DNA from: a virus
IMG/VR virus record: IMGVR_UViG_3300009184_000038
Location: 10,546-74,545 of that record
Length of the DNA stretch: 64,000 nucleotides
Direction: 5' to 3' (one strand)
Shown: positions 10,167 to 24,248 of the stretch, piece after piece
Layout: the number at the start of each line of letters is the position of its first letter
Numbering within the stretch: the stretch's first letter is position 1
Made by a program: the position numbers and the translations under genes
The notes under the pieces: generated by a model
Databases searched by the model: none
Seen by the model: only the letters and a program-made list of their open reading frames with translations
What the model was told of the DNA's origin: nothing

Positions 10167-10567
10167 TTGAGACGCTCCAGCAGCGAGCGGAGCGTGGCGG
10201 CGTGATTGCTCCAGTTGTTTGACCACGGGGCGAGGGGGCCGTCGCCAATCTGCGAGAACCACTCAACCGCCTCCCGCTCGTCTTCTCTGAGCCGCAGCAG
10301 CTCAATCTCATCCGCCATCGCAGTCGCATATTTCACGCCGCACCCAGCCTCGTCTTCGGGCCATGTGGGATTGAGGCCAGCGCGATCCCACGCGGCTTCA
10401 ATGGCGATCTCGTCTTCAGCCCGCCGTGATGGCAACGCATAGAGCGGGACGACCGTCCAGCCCCACTCTCTGGCGGCGGCGTCTGCCTGCTCCTTCAGCA
10501 AGTAGACCGCAGAGCTTTCGCTGCCATCAGTGGCAACGGCAATCCATGCGGCGGGTTCTTTGCTCAT
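10163..10567 (-). CDS. Modular accessory protein (EPAAW..VVPLY + ADEIELLR + TLRSLLERLK)
   Basis: Shared motifs; coupled stop/start. Confidence 0.75.
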   Translation of the reverse strand: MSKEPAAWIAVATDGSESSAVYLLKEQADAAAREWGWTVVPLYALPSRRAEDEIAIEAAWDRAGLNPTWPEDEAGCGVKYATAMADEIELLRLREDEREAVEWFSQIGDGPLAPWSNNWSNHAATLRSLLERLK

Positions 10568-13828: not shown

Positions 13829-14049
13829 CGGCCCTTCTCCATCTCAATGATCCTCTCATCAAGCGTCTTATTGACATCCCGCAACGCTTCGATCAGCACC
13901 CGCTGCTGCTTGTTCTCCTTGACCAACGCATGGAGCCTGTTCTCGCGATGCGCATAGGTGCCCCGATGCCGCTCAAGCTCGGCCTGAAGCTCGCGAACGA
14001 CGCGGCGATTAAAAAGCCAGTCAGTAAGCTGACCAATCATGTAGATCAT
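13825..14049 (-). CDS. Small coiled-coil protein
   Basis: Heptad pattern; coupled. Confidence 0.6.
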   Translation of the reverse strand: MIYMIGQLTDWLFNRRVVRELQAELERHRGTYAHRENRLHALVKENKQQRVLIEALRDVNKTLDERIIEMEKGR

Positions 14050-14255
14050 GTTCGCTCCCAGGCGTTGACGGTCTCACTGTGACGCATGATCTGTTTGACC
14101 CGGTGGCCGTCGATCACCTCGTCCTTCCGGTAGACGTGGATGACGGCCCCAGCGGCCAGCGGCATCTCGATGCACTCGCGAAGCACGGGGCGGATAGCAC
14201 CGTCGAGCGGGCCACCGACGAACTCGAGCTGGATGAAGTCTTTCATGGTTCTCAC
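14046..14255 (-). CDS. Small protein with GGPLDG motif
   Basis: FVGGPLDG, a recurrent motif in small phage proteins. Confidence 0.65.
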   Translation of the reverse strand: MRTMKDFIQLEFVGGPLDGAIRPVLRECIEMPLAAGAVIHVYRKDEVIDGHRVKQIMRHSETVNAWERT

Positions 14256-14264
14256 TCGCGGGCC

Positions 14265-14296
14265 GGGGGCGGCGGCAGACGAGAACCGCCGCCCCC
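14265..14296. other. 11-bp GC hairpin without U-tract
   Basis: GGGGGCGGCGG...CCGCCGCCCCC, intergenic. Confidence 0.45.
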
Positions 14297-14312
14297 AGCG
14301 TGGCGAAGACGA

Positions 14313-14642
14313 TCAGTTGCCGCTGTAACGGAGGACGGCGAACCAGCCGCGGCGAGCCGGCGAGTAGCTCACGCCGCGTTCGACGATGCGGAGGCGGCCT
14401 CGGACGGCCTCGGAGTAGAAGCAAGCCGACTTCTCTGCGGCACTCGGGCTGACGGTCGAGAAACCGATGCCCTCTTTTTGGTTGCCCCTGAGAACTCGGC
14501 AATGCCTGAGCAAGCCCGTGCGGGCACAATCATCAGCCGTCTCCTGGGCACTGACCACGGTGGTCGTCGTCACGATGACGTTCTCGGCCGAGGCGATTGT
14601 GGCGCAGCAGGCCACGGCGAAAGCAAGAAAAAAGGAACGCAT
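14313..14642 (-). CDS. Secreted small protein, minimal CAP/SCP-like
   Basis: Sec signal MRSFFLAFAVACCATIASA; A...G...H...EGIG...C...GWFAV pattern; AAGGAGG RBS. Confidence 0.65.
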   Translation of the reverse strand: MRSFFLAFAVACCATIASAENVIVTTTTVVSAQETADDCARTGLLRHCRVLRGNQKEGIGFSTVSPSAAEKSACFYSEAVRGRLRIVERGVSYSPARRGWFAVLRYSGN

Positions 14643-14685
14643 AGTCAATCCTCCTTGAAATGAAACGGGACACAAACCGGCAGGC

Positions 14686-14714
14686 ATTGTCTGCAACAGT
14701 AGTGTGACTGTCAA
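14686..14714 (-). promoter_or_regulatory. Sigma70-type promoter TTGACA-N17-GACAAT
   Basis: -35 at 14709-14714, -10 at 14686-14691. Confidence 0.65.
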
Positions 14715-14923
14715 GACTGATCCAACCCTTCGACGAACTTCCTCATCTCAGTCGCGTAGACCTCGACCGACTCTGCCAAGAGATAAGAAGCAGTCGCCAG
14801 ACCGTGAGCATCAACTTGTTGCGCAGCCTTCGCAGTCGCCTTAATAGCCGGAATCGTCGTAGACAGCATCCTCTCAATGTTCATCATTCGCATAGCGATG
14901 AGGATTTTGTCTTCGGGTGTCAC
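14711..14923 (-). CDS. Hypothetical protein
   Basis: GTGA overlap with GNAT stop. Confidence 0.55.
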   Translation of the reverse strand: MTPEDKILIAMRMMNIERMLSTTIPAIKATAKAAQQVDAHGLATASYLLAESVEVYATEMRKFVEGLDQS

Positions 14924-15324
14924 TTGCGTGCCTCACGCCACGTCCCGTCTGGCTTCCGGTCGAAGCTCGCGTAGAGAATCCCCAGGCGGCTGGCGAGCGA
15001 TACCATCGCCGGCCGGAACACGGCGACGAACTCGTGATCGCGGAACACGCCTTCCGTCCGCAGGCCGGCGGTGCAGAGCGTAGCCACGCCGCGGCGGCGG
15101 TAGGCCGGCGATACGAACGCCTCGAGCGTCGGTATCTCATTCCATGCCTCGCTCCTGGCCCAGCCAATGATCTCGCCTTGATCCAGGCAGATGGCGATCG
15201 TGCCGGTCACGGTGCCGCCGAGCAGTGCCCGCTGGAACTCGCTTTCCGGTCGCGTCAGGTGGTCGGCGATGAATCGACGCTCTGAGGGTCGCAGAAGGTC
15301 GGTCTTGAGAACGAATAGCTCCAT
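14920..15324 (-). CDS. GNAT-family acetyltransferase
   Basis: FVSPAYRRRGVAT acetyl-CoA motif A. Confidence 0.8.
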   Translation of the reverse strand: MELFVLKTDLLRPSERRFIADHLTRPESEFQRALLGGTVTGTIAICLDQGEIIGWARSEAWNEIPTLEAFVSPAYRRRGVATLCTAGLRTEGVFRDHEFVAVFRPAMVSLASRLGILYASFDRKPDGTWREARK

Positions 15325-15998
15325 TACTTTTCAAGCTCCCGCAGCACGCCCTCGATGATCGGGTGCCTGACAATGTCTGTGCCCTTGAACTCGACGACGC
15401 CAACGCCCTTCAGGCCCGACAACCGCTGCATCACGTCGATCAGACGCCGCTCGCTCCTGGGGAGGTCGGACTGGTCGGCATCGCCCGTGACGATGATCTG
15501 GCTGCCCGTACCGAGGCGGGTGAGAAAGAGCTTGAGTTGCCCGAACGTCGAATTCTGTGCTTCATCAAAAATCATGACAGAACGCGAGAATGTGCGGCCT
15601 CGAAGGTATGCGAGAGGCGCGATCTTCACCGCGCCGCTGATGCGGTCGCGGGTATGGCCGCGCTTGCCGGCGATCCGCTCGAGCGCGTCGAAAAATGGCA
15701 CGAGGTACGGGCCGACCTTCTCTTCTGCACTTCCAGGCAAGTAGCCGAGCTGCTCCGTCGCCACCGACGGTCGTGTGATCACGATGTTCTCCACCTTGCC
15801 GTCAACGAGCTGCTGGACGGCGTAACCGCTCGCCAAGTGTGTCTTCCCCGTGCCGGCTGGGCCGAGCACGAACGTAATCACGCTCCTGCTGATCACCTCG
15901 AGCGCGTGAGCCTGGGCCTTCGTGCGTGCGGCGTAGCCCTCCGGCGGCGGCGGCAGTGCGGGCTTCTTCTTGGATTGGCGTTCGCGCTTTCGGTTCAA
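15324..15998 (-). CDS. phoH: PhoH-family ATPase
   Basis: GPAGTGKT, LGYLPGS, AYLRGRTF, DEAQN, GDADQSD, RHPII. Confidence 0.96.
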   Translation of the reverse strand: MNRKRERQSKKKPALPPPPEGYAARTKAQAHALEVISRSVITFVLGPAGTGKTHLASGYAVQQLVDGKVENIVITRPSVATEQLGYLPGSAEEKVGPYLVPFFDALERIAGKRGHTRDRISGAVKIAPLAYLRGRTFSRSVMIFDEAQNSTFGQLKLFLTRLGTGSQIIVTGDADQSDLPRSERRLIDVMQRLSGLKGVGVVEFKGTDIVRHPIIEGVLRELEK

Positions 15999-18421
15999 GT
16001 GTTGTCTCCTTTAGTGGCCTTATTAATGCGGTAACCGAGCCAGACCATGCACGGCACGGCCATGCTGTTTCCGAGGGCGCGGTAGCGGGGGCCGTCGGCG
16101 GCTGGCTTCTTGCGGAAGATGATGTCTGTGTGTCCTGCGGGGAAGCCTTGCAGATACTCGCACTCGGATGGCGTGAGGCGGCGCACTTGCATGGAACTGC
16201 GGACGCTGGCGTCTGCGACGAACGTGTCCTGTGAGTCACGGCCACTTCCGAACACCCCGCCCTTGCCCTGCGCACCAGCGGAAATCGCATACGCTGGGTC
16301 TGGGAATCCAGACGGAGTCGGCAAGCACACATTGACCGCGTCGGCTCGCCCGCCGCCGCCTGGATTCGTTAGGGAAGGAACGACGCCGTCCTTCATGATC
16401 TCCGGCACCTTGACGCCGTCCCGCGAGCGATTGGCGAAAGCCACAGCAACCATGTGCTTCGGCGGCTCGTGCCGCTCGTCCCAGCCATTCAAGCAAGCAG
16501 AAACGGCGGCCTCTTCGTATCGCGGAGCCTCTTCCTTACTGTGCGGGTTCGTCGCCTTGACGTAGGCGACGGCAGGCTGCGCGATATACGTCTGCTGGTG
16601 GCTCCCAGGCTCTGCACTGCACACGCTGGCGACATCAAGAATGCGAACCTCTTCTCGCTGGTTTTGGGTGAATGCGACGGCGTGCGGCTGACTTGCGTCC
16701 ATCGTCGGAGAAAGCTCCTCCAGCGGATTGAAAGAGGGGTTCCGCAGTCGAACTCGTCCCTCCGCATCTGCACTAGGAGTTTTTGCGACCCCCTCTCTCC
16801 CGGCGTCACCTCGCAGCCCGTAGGCGACGGCCAACTGGCCGCCAGCGTTTGCGTTGCCGTCAACGTGCTGCATCGCCCGCATGGTCGGCGACAGCTCTGC
16901 GGTAGCATCGCCGCTGTAGTCCTTGGCCGTAAACGCGACGGCAGGCGTGTTGCACCGCTGGAGCGGGCCAGTGCCCTCTTCTGTGATGCCCAGGCTATCA
17001 TTGGCCTTGCCGTAGCCGCCGCCGTTCTGCCAGTTGAATCCCACGGCGTTTGCGGGCTGCGCGATCACGCATGACGGTCGGCTCGGCCTGTCTTCTCCCT
17101 CGGCCCGCAGCGTGCCCGCTATCTCGTCTTTCATCCAGAAACCTTGGCCGCTCTCCCGCATTGCGTGAGCCTGCGCGGTAGCACAGACAACCGTATCCTG
17201 ATCGCCCTTGTCCGCATCGGCCGAAAGCGGCGGCGCGATATCTGATGGCTTGCCGTCCTTGCCTCGCGTGAAATGCGATGGCTTAAAGCAAGTCGCCTCG
17301 TCAAAGACACCCCCTGTGGTAACGATCGGCGTTTGGCCTTCGTCCACCGTCGTGTTCATGCCCTTGTGCATTCGATGCGTCAGCGGGTTGGCGACAGACG
17401 GCAAAAATGCGACCGCTGTATGCGTCCTGTCCGTTAAGCCCCCCCCCCTGTGAGCACCATCAGAGAGAGTTCCAACAACATTAGGAACGCCGACAACTTC
17501 TCTCTCACCAAAAGCCGCAGAACCGCAGCCTTTGAAGTAGTGCGAGTCCAGCGTGCCTGCACACTGCCCGCTGATCCCCACCGCCGCCGGCCCCCTAGCG
17601 ACCATGCTGCCAGCCACGCCGTCCTGCGTGATCTGCGGCTTGTACTGAGCATTCACTCCTTGGTTGAACATGGCTCGGTCAAGGTAGCACGGCTCACCAC
17701 CGACTCGAGGGCGTCCTTCAGTGCCGGCGGCAGCTCCTTGCCCCGCTTTGCTGCGCGACGGAGGATTCCCTCGCACGCTTTCGCGGAGAGAAAGTATCTC
17801 GGATGGACAGGCGTCGTCTCCAAGACTTGCGACAAGTTCACAAGGCACGGCAACGAGAAAGACTCGCCTACGCCTCTGAGCCACCCCAAAGAATTGGGCG
17901 TCAAGGATTCGATAACCCACTCGTCGGGTTTCTCCACAAACATAGCCTGCTTTAGGCCACTTACCTGTTTCAGTTTGAGGGGCTTCATCGCACCCAGCGA
18001 GCGCTCCGATGAGGCATCCAAAGGCGTTGTCCTTTGTTGAGAGGAGTCCAGGGACATTTTCGTAAACAGCAATTGCTGGCGGTCTTCCATGACGCTTTCT
18101 CACTTCATCTATGTGGTTCAGTAGCCTAACGTAGGCTAGCGTGATATTGCCTCTATCATCATCCAGACTCTTGCGGAGACCGGCCACGCTGAACGCCTGA
18201 CACGGCGGGCCTCCGACGAGGAGGTCGCACTCCGCAAGAATTTCTTCGGGCCATTCGGCGAACTTCGTCATGTCGCCGAGGTTCGGCACCTGGGGCCAGC
18301 GAGCCGCGAGCACGGCAGACGGGAACGCCTCGATCTCGCTGAATGCCAGCGGCGTCCAGCCAAACCCGTGGAATGCGACAGTGGCGGCCTCAATGCCGGA
18401 ACAGATGCTGATGTAGTTCAT
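15995..18421 (-). CDS. C5-cytosine DNA methyltransferase with greatly expanded variable region
   Basis: SICSGIEA (I), GGPPCQAFS (IV), ENVPG (VI), QRRRRVF (VIII), RRLTPSECEYLQGF (IX), GNSMAVP (X). Confidence 0.95.
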   Translation of the reverse strand: MNYISICSGIEAATVAFHGFGWTPLAFSEIEAFPSAVLAARWPQVPNLGDMTKFAEWPEEILAECDLLVGGPPCQAFSVAGLRKSLDDDRGNITLAYVRLLNHIDEVRKRHGRPPAIAVYENVPGLLSTKDNAFGCLIGALAGCDEAPQTETGKWPKAGYVCGETRRVGYRILDAQFFGVAQRRRRVFLVAVPCELVASLGDDACPSEILSLRESVRGNPPSRSKAGQGAAAGTEGRPRVGGEPCYLDRAMFNQGVNAQYKPQITQDGVAGSMVARGPAAVGISGQCAGTLDSHYFKGCGSAAFGEREVVGVPNVVGTLSDGAHRGGGLTDRTHTAVAFLPSVANPLTHRMHKGMNTTVDEGQTPIVTTGGVFDEATCFKPSHFTRGKDGKPSDIAPPLSADADKGDQDTVVCATAQAHAMRESGQGFWMKDEIAGTLRAEGEDRPSRPSCVIAQPANAVGFNWQNGGGYGKANDSLGITEEGTGPLQRCNTPAVAFTAKDYSGDATAELSPTMRAMQHVDGNANAGGQLAVAYGLRGDAGREGVAKTPSADAEGRVRLRNPSFNPLEELSPTMDASQPHAVAFTQNQREEVRILDVASVCSAEPGSHQQTYIAQPAVAYVKATNPHSKEEAPRYEEAAVSACLNGWDERHEPPKHMVAVAFANRSRDGVKVPEIMKDGVVPSLTNPGGGGRADAVNVCLPTPSGFPDPAYAISAGAQGKGGVFGSGRDSQDTFVADASVRSSMQVRRLTPSECEYLQGFPAGHTDIIFRKKPAADGPRYRALGNSMAVPCMVWLGYRINKATKGDNT
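17439..17448 (-). repeat. G10 homopolymer inside the MTase variable region
   Basis: C10 on the plus strand; longest homopolymer I noticed in the window. Confidence 0.9.
17653..18090 (-). CDS. Nested alternative-frame ORF, putative MTase beta-like polypeptide
   Basis: LSQVLE...PRYFLSAKACEGILRRAAKRGKELP motif; same strand, different frame inside the MTase gene. Confidence 0.65.
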   Translation of the reverse strand: MEDRQQLLFTKMSLDSSQQRTTPLDASSERSLGAMKPLKLKQVSGLKQAMFVEKPDEWVIESLTPNSLGWLRGVGESFSLPCLVNLSQVLETTPVHPRYFLSAKACEGILRRAAKRGKELPPALKDALESVVSRATLTEPCSTKE

Positions 18422-18561
18422 TTCTTCTTTGCCTTTTCCTTGGCGTTTTTGGCGATATCAAGAGCGATGGCGACTGCCTGCTTGTGCGGACGACCAGCCT
18501 TCATCTCAGTCTTGATGTTCGCGCTGATTGTCTTCGGGCTATACCCCTTTTTGATTGGCAT
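18418..18561 (-). CDS. Small basic phage protein (47 aa, not in the ORF track)
   Basis: MPIKKGYSPKTISANIKTEMKAGRPHKQAVAIAL, a recurrent phage family motif; ATGA-coupled to the MTase. Confidence 0.75.
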   Translation of the reverse strand: MPIKKGYSPKTISANIKTEMKAGRPHKQAVAIALDIAKNAKEKAKKK

Positions 18562-18661
18562 TCTTGCCCTCCACGATGATTCGGAACTCGGAGCACCCGC
18601 ACTTCGGACATGGCCCGTTGGTTTTCTTTGGCTCGTTGCAGCGATTGCAGAAGCGGTTCAT
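18539..18661 (-). CDS. 40-aa zinc-ribbon micro-protein
   Basis: CNRC and CPKC; ATGA overlap with the HNH stop. Confidence 0.5.
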   Translation of the reverse strand: MNRFCNRCNEPKKTNGPCPKCGCSEFRIIVEGKNANQKGV

Positions 18662-19290
18662 GGGAGTAGCCATTCTTCAAAGCCCCGCCACCCGATCTGA
18701 GCAGCCCACTGAACGCTTACGCCGCTAGGGAACTTCAGCCGTCCGTGCTTGTGAATCTTGCTGTGACAGTCGGAGCACACTGTCAGGAGATCGGAAAGCT
18801 CTTCTCTGAATATGCTTTCGTATGCAACGTGATGGCACTGAATCTCTTCAGAGTCTCCGCACAGCACACACATCATTGAATCGTGCTCAAACCTTGCCGA
18901 ACGAACAATCTGCCAATGCGGTGTCATGTAGTAAGCCGAACGCATCTCTGGAGTTACTCTTGCAAGCGATGGCTTCTGCCTCGTGTCGGGCATGAAGTAA
19001 GGAGAGGCGTGGCTTCCGTCGCCCTTAATCAAAAAACCATGTGCATTTCGCAACTGCTCAACAACAGGCGCTAGCCTGCTGCCATCGCTCAGTTCGCTTT
19101 CGTAGACGCTTTTTTTCAAAAGGTCGCCTGACCTTAGTCGAGCAAGAACGTCGCATTGAGCTTCGTCTCGCTGATGAAAGTCACGAGCTGTGTTTTTCAG
19201 CTCTTCCGCTGCCTCAAACGGAATGCAGGCAGACAAACACGAATCGATGCTGTTTTCGTATCCCATAATGCCCCCTGCCTCTGTGGTCAT
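18658..19290 (-). CDS. HNH endonuclease with N-terminal extension
   Basis: YY.TPHW..VR, CVLC, CHHVAY, L.TVCSDCH..IH. Confidence 0.85.
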   Translation of the reverse strand: MTTEAGGIMGYENSIDSCLSACIPFEAAEELKNTARDFHQRDEAQCDVLARLRSGDLLKKSVYESELSDGSRLAPVVEQLRNAHGFLIKGDGSHASPYFMPDTRQKPSLARVTPEMRSAYYMTPHWQIVRSARFEHDSMMCVLCGDSEEIQCHHVAYESIFREELSDLLTVCSDCHSKIHKHGRLKFPSGVSVQWAAQIGWRGFEEWLLP

Positions 19291-19502
19291 TGCCCTTTCC
19301 TCTCCTCAAGCCAGTCAGCCGCCTTCTCAAGCCACGCGGCGACTCTCCGCAGGGCTTCTGGGTTTTCGCTGTAGTCGGGATCGCCTTCGCACGGCGGGAG
19401 CGTGTCGAACATGACATCGACATACGGCGTCGAATGCTCCTCGTCGCGACAGGTCAGCGAAAACCGCTCGTCGTCGATGTCGATTGGGGACGGTGGTTTC
19501 AT
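19287..19502 (-). CDS. Hypothetical protein
   Basis: ATGA coupling. Confidence 0.55.
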   Translation of the reverse strand: MKPPSPIDIDDERFSLTCRDEEHSTPYVDVMFDTLPPCEGDPDYSENPEALRRVAAWLEKAADWLEERKGQ

Positions 19503-19614
19503 TCGTCATCCCCCGTCATGTAGGGAAGCAGGCTGAAGTAAAAAACCGCCCCGACGGCCACGAGCAGAGTCGTGACGTTAAGCCAGAGGCTCATGTGTGA
19601 TTCGATTGGGGTCA

Positions 19615-19857
19615 TCACTCACCTCGCAGATAGCCGAGCCATGTGCGGGCCGGCTTCCGCAGCTCTTCGACCTCGTCGAGAAGGCTGTTGAGTGCCTTCT
19701 CGGCGTTCTCGAGGCGAACGGTCAGGGCCGCGACTGACTTCGTCAACGCGACGGCCATGCGGTCGGTCGATTCGCCTTCTTCGCGAAGGTCGTGAACCGC
19801 CTGGGCGATACCGGCGATCGTCTTTTCAACGCTGCACTCGGGCTTTTTCTTTGCCAC
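19615..19857 (-). CDS. Coiled-coil hypothetical protein
   Basis: GGAGGA RBS before GTG; heptads. Confidence 0.55.
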   Translation of the reverse strand: MAKKKPECSVEKTIAGIAQAVHDLREEGESTDRMAVALTKSVAALTVRLENAEKALNSLLDEVEELRKPARTWLGYLRGE

Positions 19858-19907
19858 CAGAAATCCTCCGTGAATGAAACAACGAACGAGAACAGAAAGC
19901 CGGTCGA

Positions 19908-20096
19908 TCACGACGCGGCCTCCTCCGTTTTCGGAGGGGCGCGGTAGATCAGTTCCTCGCGGATGATCTTGACGTGCTTGGGTGCGTCGATGACGAGCCT
20001 GACCGTCTTGCCTACGACAGACTCGACCGTGATCTCGATGCGAGGCCGATCCAGAATGAGCTTCTGGCCGGGGCGACGAGTTAAGCAAAGTGCCAT
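19908..20096 (-). CDS. csrA: Carbon storage regulator CsrA/RsmA homolog
   Basis: LCLTRRPGQKLIL...IEITV...VRLVIDAPKHVKIIREEL matches the CsrA consensus. Confidence 0.9.
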   Translation of the reverse strand: MALCLTRRPGQKLILDRPRIEITVESVVGKTVRLVIDAPKHVKIIREELIYRAPPKTEEAAS

Positions 20097-20129
20097 GTGG
20101 GAATCCTTTCCGCTGTGGTGATCAGTAGC

Positions 20130-20606
20130 CTAACGAGTGGTGCCAGTAGCGTCCAGATGTTTTTTGCACATCTCGCGAACCGTCGGTCGCGGGTGGTTGT
20201 CGATTGCCCATTTTAGGTAGTCCAGGCCACGCGGCTGCTTCTCCACCTCTGGTAGCGTGAGGCCGGCGAACCGACCGTCACGCAGGACGAACTCCTGATC
20301 CCTCGGCTTCAAGTGCCCCTTGATCGCTCGCACCCACTGGCCGGTGCCACAGAAGACGCACGACACATACCACTCGCCGCCGTCCTCGTAGAGGATGTCG
20401 TGGAGTTGGGTGCCGCAGGCGGCGTCTGCGCAGTCGTAGGTGTGATCGATCATGCCGATTGGCAGGATCGCTCGTGGAGCAATTCCCCCTATATAAATAG
20501 GGTCTTTTTTGGGTTTCTCGGGTTCAATTGGATGGGCCGCGGCCGGTTGCGCGCGGGAGCGTTTTCGGGTCGGCTCATCTGGCGAAATGTCGAATAGCAG
20601 GGTCAT
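20130..20606 (-). CDS. Zn-ribbon plus ExoX C-terminal/DUF3820-like protein
   Basis: CADAAC/CVFC; GRFAGLTLPEV...DYLKW. Confidence 0.6.
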   Translation of the reverse strand: MTLLFDISPDEPTRKRSRAQPAAAHPIEPEKPKKDPIYIGGIAPRAILPIGMIDHTYDCADAACGTQLHDILYEDGGEWYVSCVFCGTGQWVRAIKGHLKPRDQEFVLRDGRFAGLTLPEVEKQPRGLDYLKWAIDNHPRPTVREMCKKHLDATGTTR

Positions 20607-22294
20607 ATGGGCATCTCCATGCGGAACTTCTCTCGGGGGTCGTGGGCCACAATCAACTTCTTTCGCGCTCGAGTAACGGCGACGTACTCGATTCGCCGCT
20701 CCTCGTCGTGACGGTCTTCGCTGCGTTCCTCGCCTTCGCGGATGCGGCGGCCGACGCTGGTCAGGATGATCACGTTGTCGGCCTCCATCCCCTTGGCCGA
20801 ATGCACCGTCCCGATGCGAATCTTCGGGTTGGCGACGGCTTCGATGCCCCACTGCTTCGCGGCTCGGCACCATGTCGCCCCGCCGTCGATCAGATCGCCC
20901 CAGGTGCCGGCGGCGATCTTCTCGCGGAGGTGGTCGGTGGCCCCGACATCGCCAAGCTCCTCGGGAAAGAGGGCGTCGTAGCGATCTTTCACGCCCCGGT
21001 TCCACTGTGTTTTCGCCCCTCGAATCAGCCACGTCTTCTCGTCGCGGCCGTCGCCTTTCTTGCTGATTGTCGCACTCGGTAGCAATTCAATGGCCTGTGT
21101 CCACTCCTCGGCACTGGCGGGCTGGCCGTTCTGGAGCTTCCACAGGCCCGTCATGCCAGCATCGCGGTTGTAGGCTCCCTGCTTGGCCTTGATCTTCCGA
21201 AACGGAACACCGACATCGTCAAGGATCGTGGCGATCTTGCCGACGTGCCGATTTGTCCTGGCGATGACCAGCGTCTCATCCTTCGGCGACAGATCGCTCA
21301 GATCGTCCTCGAAGTTATCGCTTTCGATGATCTCGCCGTCGTGGTCGGCGGCCTCGACGCCGCGGTTCCAGTACCCCTTGGTGAGCCTCTGGAGGCAGTC
21401 CTCGCCAAGCTGGAGGATCGGCTTCGCACAGCGGTAGCTCTTGGGCATGATCTCCTGCCGATCGACCTTCCAGCCCATGAAGAACTCGCTCGACGCCCCG
21501 GCCCATGAGTAAAGAACCTGAAACGGGTCGCCGACGAGCCACGCCCATCGGCAGGAGTCGCCGGTCACGAGCCGCCGGCAGGCCATGTCGAGGAGGCGGC
21601 TGGCGTCCTGCGCCTCGTCGAAAATCCAGCCGACGACTTCGTTCGGCACCGCGCCCTCGGGCGTGACCATCTCGGGGCCGGTGGCCGGGTTGTTGGCGAC
21701 CCCGACGAACCGGGCGAGCATATCGGTGAAGTCGAGTCGGCCGTCCAGACGCTTGGCCGACTCGTACATCTCGATGCGACGGATCACCTCCTCGGCCGTC
21801 GGGCCGTCGGGCTCCCACTCGTAGGCGGCCTCGGCGATCTCGCGCAGGGGGGCGACCATGCTCCTCGCCAGCGACCAGTAGTTGAGGGCCGCCGCGGCGA
21901 TGGGGTCGCCCGTGTAGATGCCGATGCCCCCCTCGGAGTCCTCGTCCACGCAGTAGGACACGTCGCTGCCGAGGGCTTCGCTGATCCACTTGTCGTCGGC
22001 CTTGCTGCCGCCAATGACCTCGCCCTTCTGGATGCCGAGCTGCCGGTAGGCCACGCTGTGGGCGGTGCGGAACCAGCCGTGCCGCTCGAGTTCCGACTGC
22101 TGCATTCCCCAGGCCGCAGCAGCACGCCCAGCAGCCTCGCTGCGGGCCGCCCGCGTAAAGGACGAGAAACCGATGGCGAACGGATTACCGCCCACCTCCG
22201 GCCTCGCCAGAGCCTTCTCGGCGGTGTTGATCATCAGCCTTGTCTTGCCCGTTCCGGCTGATCCGACCGCCCGAAGAACCTTCAAATCGTCCAT
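20603..22294 (-). CDS. UvrD/Rep-like SF1 helicase
   Basis: GSAGTGKT, SFTRAA, DEAQD, GDPFQ, SYRC, TVHSAKGMEAD, YVAVTRAR. Confidence 0.93.
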   Translation of the reverse strand: MDDLKVLRAVGSAGTGKTRLMINTAEKALARPEVGGNPFAIGFSSFTRAARSEAAGRAAAAWGMQQSELERHGWFRTAHSVAYRQLGIQKGEVIGGSKADDKWISEALGSDVSYCVDEDSEGGIGIYTGDPIAAAALNYWSLARSMVAPLREIAEAAYEWEPDGPTAEEVIRRIEMYESAKRLDGRLDFTDMLARFVGVANNPATGPEMVTPEGAVPNEVVGWIFDEAQDASRLLDMACRRLVTGDSCRWAWLVGDPFQVLYSWAGASSEFFMGWKVDRQEIMPKSYRCAKPILQLGEDCLQRLTKGYWNRGVEAADHDGEIIESDNFEDDLSDLSPKDETLVIARTNRHVGKIATILDDVGVPFRKIKAKQGAYNRDAGMTGLWKLQNGQPASAEEWTQAIELLPSATISKKGDGRDEKTWLIRGAKTQWNRGVKDRYDALFPEELGDVGATDHLREKIAAGTWGDLIDGGATWCRAAKQWGIEAVANPKIRIGTVHSAKGMEADNVIILTSVGRRIREGEERSEDRHDEERRIEYVAVTRARKKLIVAHDPREKFRMEMPI

Positions 22295-22439
22295 TTGATC
22301 CTCCTGATCCCCCACTAGCGGGGCGTAAGATGGGTAAACCTAGATTTTCCGTCCACAAAAACCGCTTTACGTCTGAACTTTTTGGTGCCTGGACGTGGAT
22401 TCCCCGGATTTTACGAAATTTCGCGGACACCCTAAGTCC

Positions 22440-24248
22440 TTATCCAGCAATGACTTCCGACTCAATCCGCAGAATCCGCGTCTCGGCGCGATGTTTTTCA
22501 CCATTTTCGATGGCCGCCTCCCCCGTATTAAGCGGCAAGTTCTCAGCCCCCCCTTCGGCCAGTGATTCGATGGCCGCGATCCACTCTGGCGTGAACACGA
22601 CGTAGCTCCTTTTCGTGGTGCCGAACGTGTGCCGGCCCTCCCTGAAGTCGCGGGCCTTCATGCGGTCGCAGAGCAGACGCTTAATCCGAATCCGCTCCCC
22701 GGCTGCCACGTCGTGGGCTCGTCCGATCTCCTCCCACGTCTTCACCCAGCCCAGCCACATCTCGCCGGGGGTCACCCATCTGGGCCTGCCCGACCGCTCG
22801 GGCTCGGGCTTGTCCTCGCTGGCCGGCTTCGCGCGTGCCAGCGTCTCGAGCAGATAGGCAGCCAGCGTGGCATACCGCAGGCTGGACGTGCCGACGTGTA
22901 CGTCGTCGGTCTTCTGCTTCTCGATGAACAGCTTCTCGAAGAGGCCGGTCAGCTTCGGCCGCTTGCTGTTGCCGTCCTGGCCTCGCCAGATGGTCTGCCA
23001 CTCGCCGATGTCGCCGTGCAGGATCACTCGGCGGGTTGACTCGAATATCTTCTTCGCCACCATCTTCGCCGACTCAAACTCAGCGAACGAGAATGCGATC
23101 TCGCCCTTGCATGGCGTGTTCTTCCACTGCGGGACGCACAGGATAATCTCGGCAGGGTCGGAGCAGATGACGCGAATCTTCCAGTCGCCTGGAGTCCACT
23201 CGCCGTCCTTCCAGCCCTCGACCGCAGCCCACTTGAGCCCGTGCATGGCGTAGCCGCTGACGGGAGCCTGCTGCCGCTTGCCCTCTTCCTCCTCCTGGGC
23301 GATCTTGTCGGCGACGGCCGCCAAGCTCTCCTCGGTTTCGGGCATGGAGTCGCCGCGAGCCTCCATCTTTCGGCGGTACTCGACGCACGAGTAGAAGAGC
23401 GTGCGAATCTGGGCCGGCGTCTTCGGCGGCTTGCATCGCCGCTCGTTGACCAGCTCAATCTCCATGAGCATATCGGCCTGGGCAGCGCCGCTGAGATACC
23501 TCGCGTGACTGAACACCTTGCTGGTGACGTAGCTCAAGAGGTGCGGGTGCCTGCCGCCCTCCTTAATGTCGCCGTGGAGCACGGCCCGCGATGACACGCC
23601 GGCCGACTCCCGCGTGCTCATATCAACGTCGTTGACGATCGCCCGCAGGAGCACGTCGGGCAGCGGGGCGAAGTCAACGTCGTCCATCGACAGACCCGGT
23701 TTCCAGCGATACTGCACGCCGCTCCAGTGCCAGCTCGGCGGCAGCACGCTCTGCGCGTCCAAGTCGCCCGTGCCCAACCGCACCTCCAGGCCACCGGGCT
23801 TCACGACCGCGGGGCAGCCGGAGAGGCGATCGTCCCACTTGAACAGCCGGTGCTCGGAGCGGCCTGAGACGTATGTCGGCGTCTCGATCTCCGTCAGACC
23901 CATCGTCTCGGCGTGTGCCTTTGCTTTCTCGTCATCCCACTCCATGTCGATGACGCCGCTGCGGGGGCCGAGCAGGATGCCGATGTTGAAAGGCTTCCCC
24001 GTATCCTTCGCCTCCTCGACCCAGTCGAGCAGCGTGTCTTCGTCGGCAGCGGCTCGGTCGCCCCACGCCTTGCCTCGCGGGTGCTTGCCGCACTGCATCT
24101 GGGCCGCGCCGCCGATCTTGTGATCGGGGTTGCCGCAGGCGCACGACCCGTCGGGCATGATGCCGTAGTCGCGGACGATCTTGCATCCCTTCGACTGCGC
24201 AAGCGCGCCCTCCTTGAACACGGCATCACCATCGAACTCGAAAGCCAC
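22440..24248 (-). CDS. Bifunctional primase-polymerase (Prim-Pol + PriCT)
   Basis: CACG..GKHP, NIGILLG..SGVIDMEWD, SGRSEH, VLPPS.H.SG..Y.W, EGGRH; AAGGAGG RBS before GTG. Confidence 0.88.
   Translation of the reverse strand: MAFEFDGDAVFKEGALAQSKGCKIVRDYGIMPDGSCACGNPDHKIGGAAQMQCGKHPRGKAWGDRAAADEDTLLDWVEEAKDTGKPFNIGILLGPRSGVIDMEWDDEKAKAHAETMGLTEIETPTYVSGRSEHRLFKWDDRLSGCPAVVKPGGLEVRLGTGDLDAQSVLPPSWHWSGVQYRWKPGLSMDDVDFAPLPDVLLRAIVNDVDMSTRESAGVSSRAVLHGDIKEGGRHPHLLSYVTSKVFSHARYLSGAAQADMLMEIELVNERRCKPPKTPAQIRTLFYSCVEYRRKMEARGDSMPETEESLAAVADKIAQEEEEGKRQQAPVSGYAMHGLKWAAVEGWKDGEWTPGDWKIRVICSDPAEIILCVPQWKNTPCKGEIAFSFAEFESAKMVAKKIFESTRRVILHGDIGEWQTIWRGQDGNSKRPKLTGLFEKLFIEKQKTDDVHVGTSSLRYATLAAYLLETLARAKPASEDKPEPERSGRPRWVTPGEMWLGWVKTWEEIGRAHDVAAGERIRIKRLLCDRMKARDFREGRHTFGTTKRSYVVFTPEWIAAIESLAEGGAENLPLNTGEAAIENGEKHRAETRILRIESEVIAG

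Follow-up and report, generated by a model that had tools for sequence, protein, structure and literature searches.

A conserved reading frame nested within a viral C5 cytosine methyltransferase gene, and its candidate role as a second chain of the enzyme

We analyzed a C5 DNA cytosine methyltransferase gene in a 64,000-nucleotide stretch of viral DNA (hereafter, the window; positions 10,546 to 74,545 of the 74.5-kb IMG/VR record IMGVR_UViG_3300009184_000038) and found that it very probably contains a second, selected coding gene that is read in the +1 frame across the catalytic motifs. On balance, we favor the view that the 145-amino-acid (aa) product of this nested open reading frame (ORF) is a structural chain of the methyltransferase that acts in trans. 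In window coordinates, the features on which the analysis is based are the following.

15995..18421, minus strand: main ORF, C5 DNA cytosine methyltransferase of 808 aa, recognized by PF00145 (3.7e-36), TIGR00675 and the positions of its motifs
17653..18090, minus strand: nested ORF, 145 codons plus stop, ATG start, read in the +1 frame relative to the main ORF; its +1-frame homologues are open in 173/173 loci
18088..18090, minus strand: nested ATG start codon, located 29 nucleotides (nt) before the ENV triplet, counted to its first base
18095..18101, minus strand: weak Shine-Dalgarno (SD)-like sequence GAGAAAG upstream of the nested ATG
17845..18087, minus strand: N-terminal part of the nested ORF, ~80 codons, rich in Ser, Thr and Lys, predicted to be disordered
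17656..17844, minus strand: C-terminal module of the nested ORF, 63 aa, with LSQVLE, an RYFLS strand and two helices; the selected and predicted folded part, located in the predicted interface
18053..18061, minus strand: motif VI (ENV) of the main frame, inside the nested ORF
17864..17878, minus strand: motif VIII (QRRRR) of the main frame, inside the nested ORF
16163..16183, minus strand: motif IX (RRLTPSE) of the main frame, where the nested RYFLS strand is predicted to dock, judging from the model of a homologue, L009
16052..16072, minus strand: motif X (GNSMAVP) of the main frame

A reading made from the sequence alone (hereafter, the sequence-only reading) had proposed a 145-aa alternative-frame ORF spanning motifs VI-VIII of the methyltransferase, and its description of the locus held in each respect. 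The ORF is on the strand of the main ORF, in its +1 frame ((18421-18090) mod 3 = 1), and lies wholly within the methyltransferase gene, the type of nesting known from M.EcoHK31I; both ENV and QRRRR are inside it. The reported peptide LSQVLE..PRYFLSAKACEGILRRA..RGKELP is found in the translation, the ~55 C-terminal residues of which read LSQVLE..RYFLSAKACEGILRRA..RGKELP. The bias in G+C content at third codon positions (GC3) is indeed lost in the overlap, where main-frame GC3 is 0.41 / 0.53, compared with 0.70-0.73 outside. The nested frame's own G+C contents at the three codon positions are 0.55/0.46/0.69, as in a normal gene of this genome.

The case for a real nested gene comes from the comparison across homologues and not from the window sequence by itself. 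We gathered 80 viral loci with the first 260 residues of the main-frame protein as the query, 80 more via a related protein and 28 from bacterial genomes; the set L003-L082 was collected by the main-frame protein only and is thus unbiased with respect to the +1 frame. Motifs VI and VIII could be located in 173 loci, and in every one of these the +1 frame encoded the Y[YF]LS and GILRR motifs, with the architecture of the window in 154/173; the +2 frame was open for only 10-70 codons in nearly all loci. Stops interrupting the nested frame in close homologues, which the sequence-only reading had named as part of the evidence that would overturn it, were not found: the frame was open in all 173. 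Searched with tblastn, the nested protein matched 136 phage records, including open ORFs in the +1 frame of the annotated methyltransferases of phage P1 (dmt, 162 aa) and MW202711 (137 aa), and the low-GC gut-phage contigs carry an equivalent +1 ORF of 131-135 aa. A profile of the C-terminal module searched against 1.84 billion representative proteins retrieved 4,379 clusters, of which 3,470 had an E value of 1e-10 or lower. Judged by these sequence matches, the nested product is a large uncurated family, the members of which are picked up by gene callers mostly as short 'hypothetical proteins'. Three database proteins (P0251, P0262 and P0281) carry the same module behind a shorter 'shadow' region, which implies, as far as sequence can tell, that nested ORFs also occur in a methyltransferase subfamily with shorter VI-VIII spacing.

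The pattern of substitutions points to selection on the encoded protein. In an alignment of 44 sequences less than 75% identical to each other, stops in the +1 frame number 13-53 per 10 columns before the nested ORF, drop to 2 in total within its span and resume afterwards; in the +2 frame, stops occur throughout. In the ten-column block that reads ACAGILRRAE, the +1 frame has a pairwise identity of 0.84 versus 0.35 for the main frame, and main-frame third-codon (wobble) identity reaches 0.88 versus a baseline of about 0.3. We then classified differences in 49 independent pairs as synonymous in the main frame only or in the +1 frame only. The ratio of the former to the latter was 5.9 upstream (motifs I-V), 2.6 in the N-terminal part of the nested ORF and 0.36 in its C-terminal module; thus, of the two frames, the nested one is under the stronger constraint in the last ~55 codons. 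This pairwise count of synonymous changes, which is in line with the check on synonymous sites that had been recommended, came out in favor of the nested gene, with main-frame synonymous change suppressed in the C-terminal module. The N-terminal part displays stop avoidance only, without amino acid conservation of its own: it is stop-free in 43/43 non-redundant sequences versus 5.7 expected from synonymous shuffling, and the residues that are conserved in it mirror main-frame motifs (in relatives, ENVPG gives GKTSP; LDAQYFGVAQRRRR gives NTSEWxNDA).

These data also bear on the alternative that the ORF is untranslated and owes its conservation to an element acting at the RNA or DNA level, or to chance in a GC-rich sequence. 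In synonymous-codon shuffles that kept the main protein and its codon usage fixed and scored openness over the 145 codons, the window's own +1 frame stayed open in 12% of cases (P about 0.12), as this alternative would have it. Against it, the ORF is open in low-GC homologues, where the same procedure gave P 0.003-0.02; the conservation is codon-periodic and acts at the amino acid level, with +1-synonymous changes favored; the flanking stops are sharp; and some lineages rely on the +1 frame for motifs IX and X (see below). We therefore regard an untranslated ORF as highly improbable.

The position of the nested start is conserved as well. Among 43 non-redundant homologues, the ATG is located at -29 relative to ENV in 25, at -56 in 9 and at -71 in 4. 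The -29 position is shared by the window, its close relatives, the low-GC gut-phage clade and three forms in which the module is fused to further domains (L163, L099 and L120), and the enterobacterial relatives start at -56 or -71. A +1-frame stop lies a few codons upstream of the conserved ATG. At the SD position, the close relatives L003-L005 read GAGGAAG or GGAGGAAG, and the low-GC clade has GAAATGAGG, for which it uses an AGG arginine codon of the main frame. A 4-nt SD core precedes 24/43 nested starts versus 12% of random positions in the same genes. Both a conserved start and a ribosome-binding site, by which overlapping genes are judged, are thus present across homologues.

The same signals help to weigh a further alternative, namely, that ribosomes or polymerases enter the +1 frame by ribosomal frameshifting or transcriptional slippage, producing a chimera of motifs I-V (or I-VIII) and the module. 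Three database sequences (P0092, P0166 and P0158) do pass from the main to the +1 frame, at ENV or within motif VIII, and the ENV codons of many members contain a GGGAAAAC-like run. However, the chimeras are single sequences that differ by 1-nt indels and have ENV or QxRxR destroyed, as expected of errors or mutants, and we judged all three to be indel variants rather than cases of programmed frameshifting. In addition, only a few codons separate the beginning of the open +1 stretch from an ATG that is conserved in position and enriched for preceding SD cores, and a shift past motif VIII would, judging from the frame map, remove the beta strand that follows QxRxR. We consider this route into the +1 frame quite unlikely and return to a nested gene with its own start.

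What the nested product might do is suggested by its C-terminal module. The sequence-only reading had likened this peptide to the segment that normally follows motif VIII in frame. We aligned that canonical segment from 15 single-chain Dcm-type enzymes of bacterial genomes (L.DIL, then KY.LS, a helix and GNGFG) and compared profiles with hhalign, which bore out the likeness: Prob 65% and P 6e-5 over 33 columns, with the elements in the right order (0.39 for the reversed control). Compared in the same way with the main-frame alignment of the family, the canonical segment matched motif IX and nothing else. On this profile evidence, the main frame has no counterpart of the L.DIL..KY.LS plus helix segment, and the C-terminal module of the nested ORF is probably that counterpart.

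Natural fusions connect the module to the rest of the enzyme. In a group of relatives labelled 'beta-long', motif VIII is followed by 60-96 further main-frame codons before the stop, and the module, the target recognition domain (TRD), motif IX and motif X are encoded, in this order, by the +1 frame. Because the main frame stops earlier, motifs IX and X of these genes can be obtained only from the +1 frame, in which the module is covalently joined to the small domain. The group includes Sphingobium chungbukense, a metagenome-assembled genome of Beijerinckiaceae, Rhizorhapis, Bosea and two viral contigs (L163-L166, L099 and L120); the bacterial members, from four alphaproteobacterial genera, are 43-54% identical to the Sphingobium protein. 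In another protein, P0175, an alpha-type chain interrupted by an intein carries the nested module in frame at its C-terminus. A separate order is found in P0128, P0135 and P0150, where the nested module comes first, followed by TRD-IX-X and then by a motif I sequence, an order suggestive of either tandem or permuted genes. The beta-long gene of Sphingobium chungbukense occupies positions 1951-3640 of L163, of which NCBI annotates just a 379-aa C-terminal protein. We also considered mapping the module onto a solved methyltransferase via the predicted fold of the beta-long protein L120; this was dropped because the overall quality was poor (predicted template modelling score 0.35), with only the module and the IX-X region confident.

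The predicted structure of the nested chain agrees with its division into two parts. In an AlphaFold2 prediction from a 38-sequence alignment, residues 1-80 had predicted local distance difference test (pLDDT) values below 50 and residues ~100-137 values of 94-97, with helices at 86-92, 103-116 and 122-137. Prediction of a complex, another proposed check, was carried out for the compact homologue L009, which combines a 371-aa main chain (52% identical to that of the window) with a 137-aa nested chain, and this pair passed its controls, with a score of 0.70 compared with 0.01 for the best of three controls. The 0.70 mark was reached by 58/80 solved complexes and 2/110 mismatched pairs, counts that apply only roughly here, because we supplied our own alignments for the modelling. 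Runs of the L009 model share at least 45% of contacts, and pLDDT of the partner is at least 53. The tightest predicted contacts are those of nested Y99-Y100-L101 with main-chain residues 278-283, the motif IX strand; nested residues 86-91 contact main-chain residues 169-170 and 286-290, and LSQTLE lies against the motif VIII region and residues 286-290. Most of the nested residues that are invariant fall within this predicted interface.

We propose that the methyltransferase gene is dual-coding, with ribosomes that start at the internal ATG (18090) reading the +1 frame to give the 145-aa protein. Its first ~80 residues would be a disordered leader written over motifs VI-VIII, the sole need of which is to lack stop codons, and the last ~55-60 residues would fold as a strand-plus-helices module (LSQVLE, RYFLS, KACEGILRRA..RGKELP..L..AL). 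This module would represent the segment that opens the small, DNA-recognition domain, at a place where the 808-aa main protein has a poorly conserved frame-0 linker. Binding in trans, the nested protein would sit between the motif VIII region of the main protein and its motif IX strand. It would thereby complete the small domain and the hinge, making the active enzyme a two-chain complex. That the nested ORF is translated, that the two chains bind and that the nested chain is needed for methylation are each what we infer from the comparisons above.

Several observations weigh against this proposal. The window's own SD-like sequence is weak, and the figure of 12% given above for the window alone is far from exceptional. 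The nested protein has no match in Pfam, NCBIfam or PDB sequences: a hidden Markov model of the nested alignment found nothing among PDB sequences at E up to 10, and in PHROGs only two homologues, not the protein of the window, gave weak matches, to phrog_16143 (E 1e-4 to 4e-3). Nor does the predicted fold have a structural neighbor above background, since Foldseek returned nothing from the PDB below E 1 and the best VIA-align Z against 48,161 chains was 4.8, to generic helical hairpins only. The link between the module and the canonical segment is one moderate profile-profile score. The complex was modelled for the L009 homologue and not for the window's own pair, and its success may echo the structures of single-chain methyltransferases, in which case it would show likeness rather than binding. 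Finally, none of the ten motifs is missing from the main protein, which might be active without a partner.

Some of these points would suit a translated product that is a regulator or an independent factor instead of a structural subunit. It might set the timing of the methyltransferase, inhibit it or direct it to other targets, or it might be a small, basic protein that binds DNA and serves infection in some other way. The C-terminal module is helical and rich in Arg and Lys, no solved fold or family links the nested product to methyltransferases, the main protein retains its full set of motifs, and the predicted interface fits an inhibitor as well as it does a subunit. Such a role is harder to reconcile with the resemblance of the module, in the right order, to a canonical segment that the main frame lacks, with its in-frame fusions, to TRD-IX-X in several lineages that have diverged and, in P0175, to an alpha-type chain, and with the finding that, in everything examined, the module was seen solely inside this type of gene. 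We consider a regulator the less probable alternative and maintain that the nested product is a structural chain. In the same vein, the suggestion of the sequence-only reading that the nested gene encodes a methyltransferase partner with a role other than that of the M.EcoHK31I beta chain is supported by the conservation, the hhalign comparison and the complex model.

Two-chain C5 methyltransferases of other designs provide a frame for this proposal. M.EcoHK31I was reportedly described as a two-polypeptide enzyme by Lee, Kam and Shaw in 1995. The beta chain of this C5 methyltransferase is encoded inside the alpha gene in another frame and carries motif IX, which is absent from the alpha chain (PMC2836561, PMC3404938). 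The window resembles it in that the whole coding sequence of a small second polypeptide lies, in another frame, within the methyltransferase gene, and in that this polypeptide, by our inference, completes the enzyme in trans. Unlike in M.EcoHK31I, the main chain of the window keeps motif IX, the nested chain lacks this motif and carries the post-VIII segment, and the overlap crosses catalytic motifs VI-VIII. Because its main chain keeps motif IX, the enzyme of the window falls outside the M.EcoHK31I family and would be a new variant of the two-chain theme. Furthermore, M.EcoHK31I is a single described enzyme, whereas the arrangement in the window is conserved across thousands of sequence clusters.

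In M.AquI, another natural two-chain enzyme, the split is in the variable region, between motifs VIII and IX: the alpha chain contains motifs I-VIII, and the beta chain, the distal variable region and motifs IX-X (PMC3404938). The beta-long relatives share this layout, except that their two ORFs overlap by well over 100 codons. Unlike in M.AquI, the 808-aa main frame of the window runs without a break through motif X, and the ~145-aa piece is the only one set apart. Single-chain Dcm-type enzymes (PF00145 over the full length, e.g., L191, L201 and L205-L219) have catalytic motifs as in the window but carry the post-VIII segment in cis, about 25-50 residues past motif VIII, and their +1 frame has 1-6 stops over the corresponding 150 codons. 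No published description of the nested gene was found in the literature searched, which left most subscription journals outside its coverage.

We would give roughly even chances to a broader proposal, that C5 methyltransferases of phages, prophages and mobile elements include a very large group of obligate two-chain enzymes in which a +1-frame chain is encoded across the catalytic core. The group would span thousands of clusters at 50% identity and hosts from Firmicutes to Proteobacteria, and would include Dmt of P1. To our knowledge, bacteria and their viruses have few long overlaps of same-strand genes in which both frames are clearly under selection; the present overlap crosses the catalytic motifs of a well-known enzyme family in thousands of clusters, a textbook phage included. 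If the proposal is true, this dual-coding region would rank among the oldest and most widely distributed that are known from viruses of prokaryotes, overlooked by annotation pipelines, and the nested chain would have been silently co-expressed whenever these genes were cloned. If the chain is needed for activity, the present annotation of these methyltransferases is incomplete, and if it is a subunit, expression constructs, synonymous recoding and codon optimization would silently destroy it. The split, nested and fused architectures form a natural series on enzyme splitting and overprinting, and the two-chain idea is directly testable in phage P1 and Escherichia coli.

The sequence-only reading had also noted a 14-nt word shared by the regions upstream of the nested gene and of the csrA gene.

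18118..18131, minus strand: 14-nt word CGTTAGGCTACTGA, with a second copy at 20122-20135; the +1-frame TGA at the boundary of the nested ORF lies within the word

The exact repeat is present at both sites, but the tie that it seemed to create between the nested gene and csrA did not hold. Exact 14-mer pairs on the same strand number about 19 in shuffles of the window, the closest homologues (L003-L005) have not kept the word, and no sigma-70-like promoter was found in 17500-20400. With a count at chance level, no conservation and no promoter-like site, we rejected the word as a shared control element; it is probably a chance repeat. As a separate observation, the window itself contains 316 same-strand exact 14-mer pairs (e.g., 750/1764, 6826/23403, 9770/10173 and 9843/11671) compared with about 19 in shuffles, which indicates real dispersed repeats elsewhere in this virus.

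In the main ORF, motifs I-VIII fall within the first ~195 residues and are followed by a very long variable region and then by motifs IX and X, so that a single chain holds motifs I, IV (PCQ), VI (ENV), VIII (QxRxR), IX and X. The PF00145 match covers residues 1-193 (profile positions 1-162) and breaks afterwards. The variable region between motifs VIII and IX (16200-17650, minus strand) amounts to ~550 residues and greatly exceeds that of most relatives, in which the complete protein has 371 to about 860 aa. Genes near the methyltransferase encode PhoH-like, HNH-like, CsrA-like and UvrD-like proteins. Positions 14000-24000, searched by megablast against phage records, had no match. The CsrA-family protein (62 aa; PF02599, 4.7e-15) is encoded at 19908-20096 on the minus strand, two small genes upstream of the methyltransferase cluster. 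On the same strand, the start of the methyltransferase gene overlaps the stop of a 47-aa Lys-rich ORF at 18418-18561 (shared positions 18418-18421), and at the other end of the gene the stop shares positions 15995-15998 with the start listed for the PhoH-like gene (15324-15998). The overlaps at both gene ends suggest a translationally chained operon.

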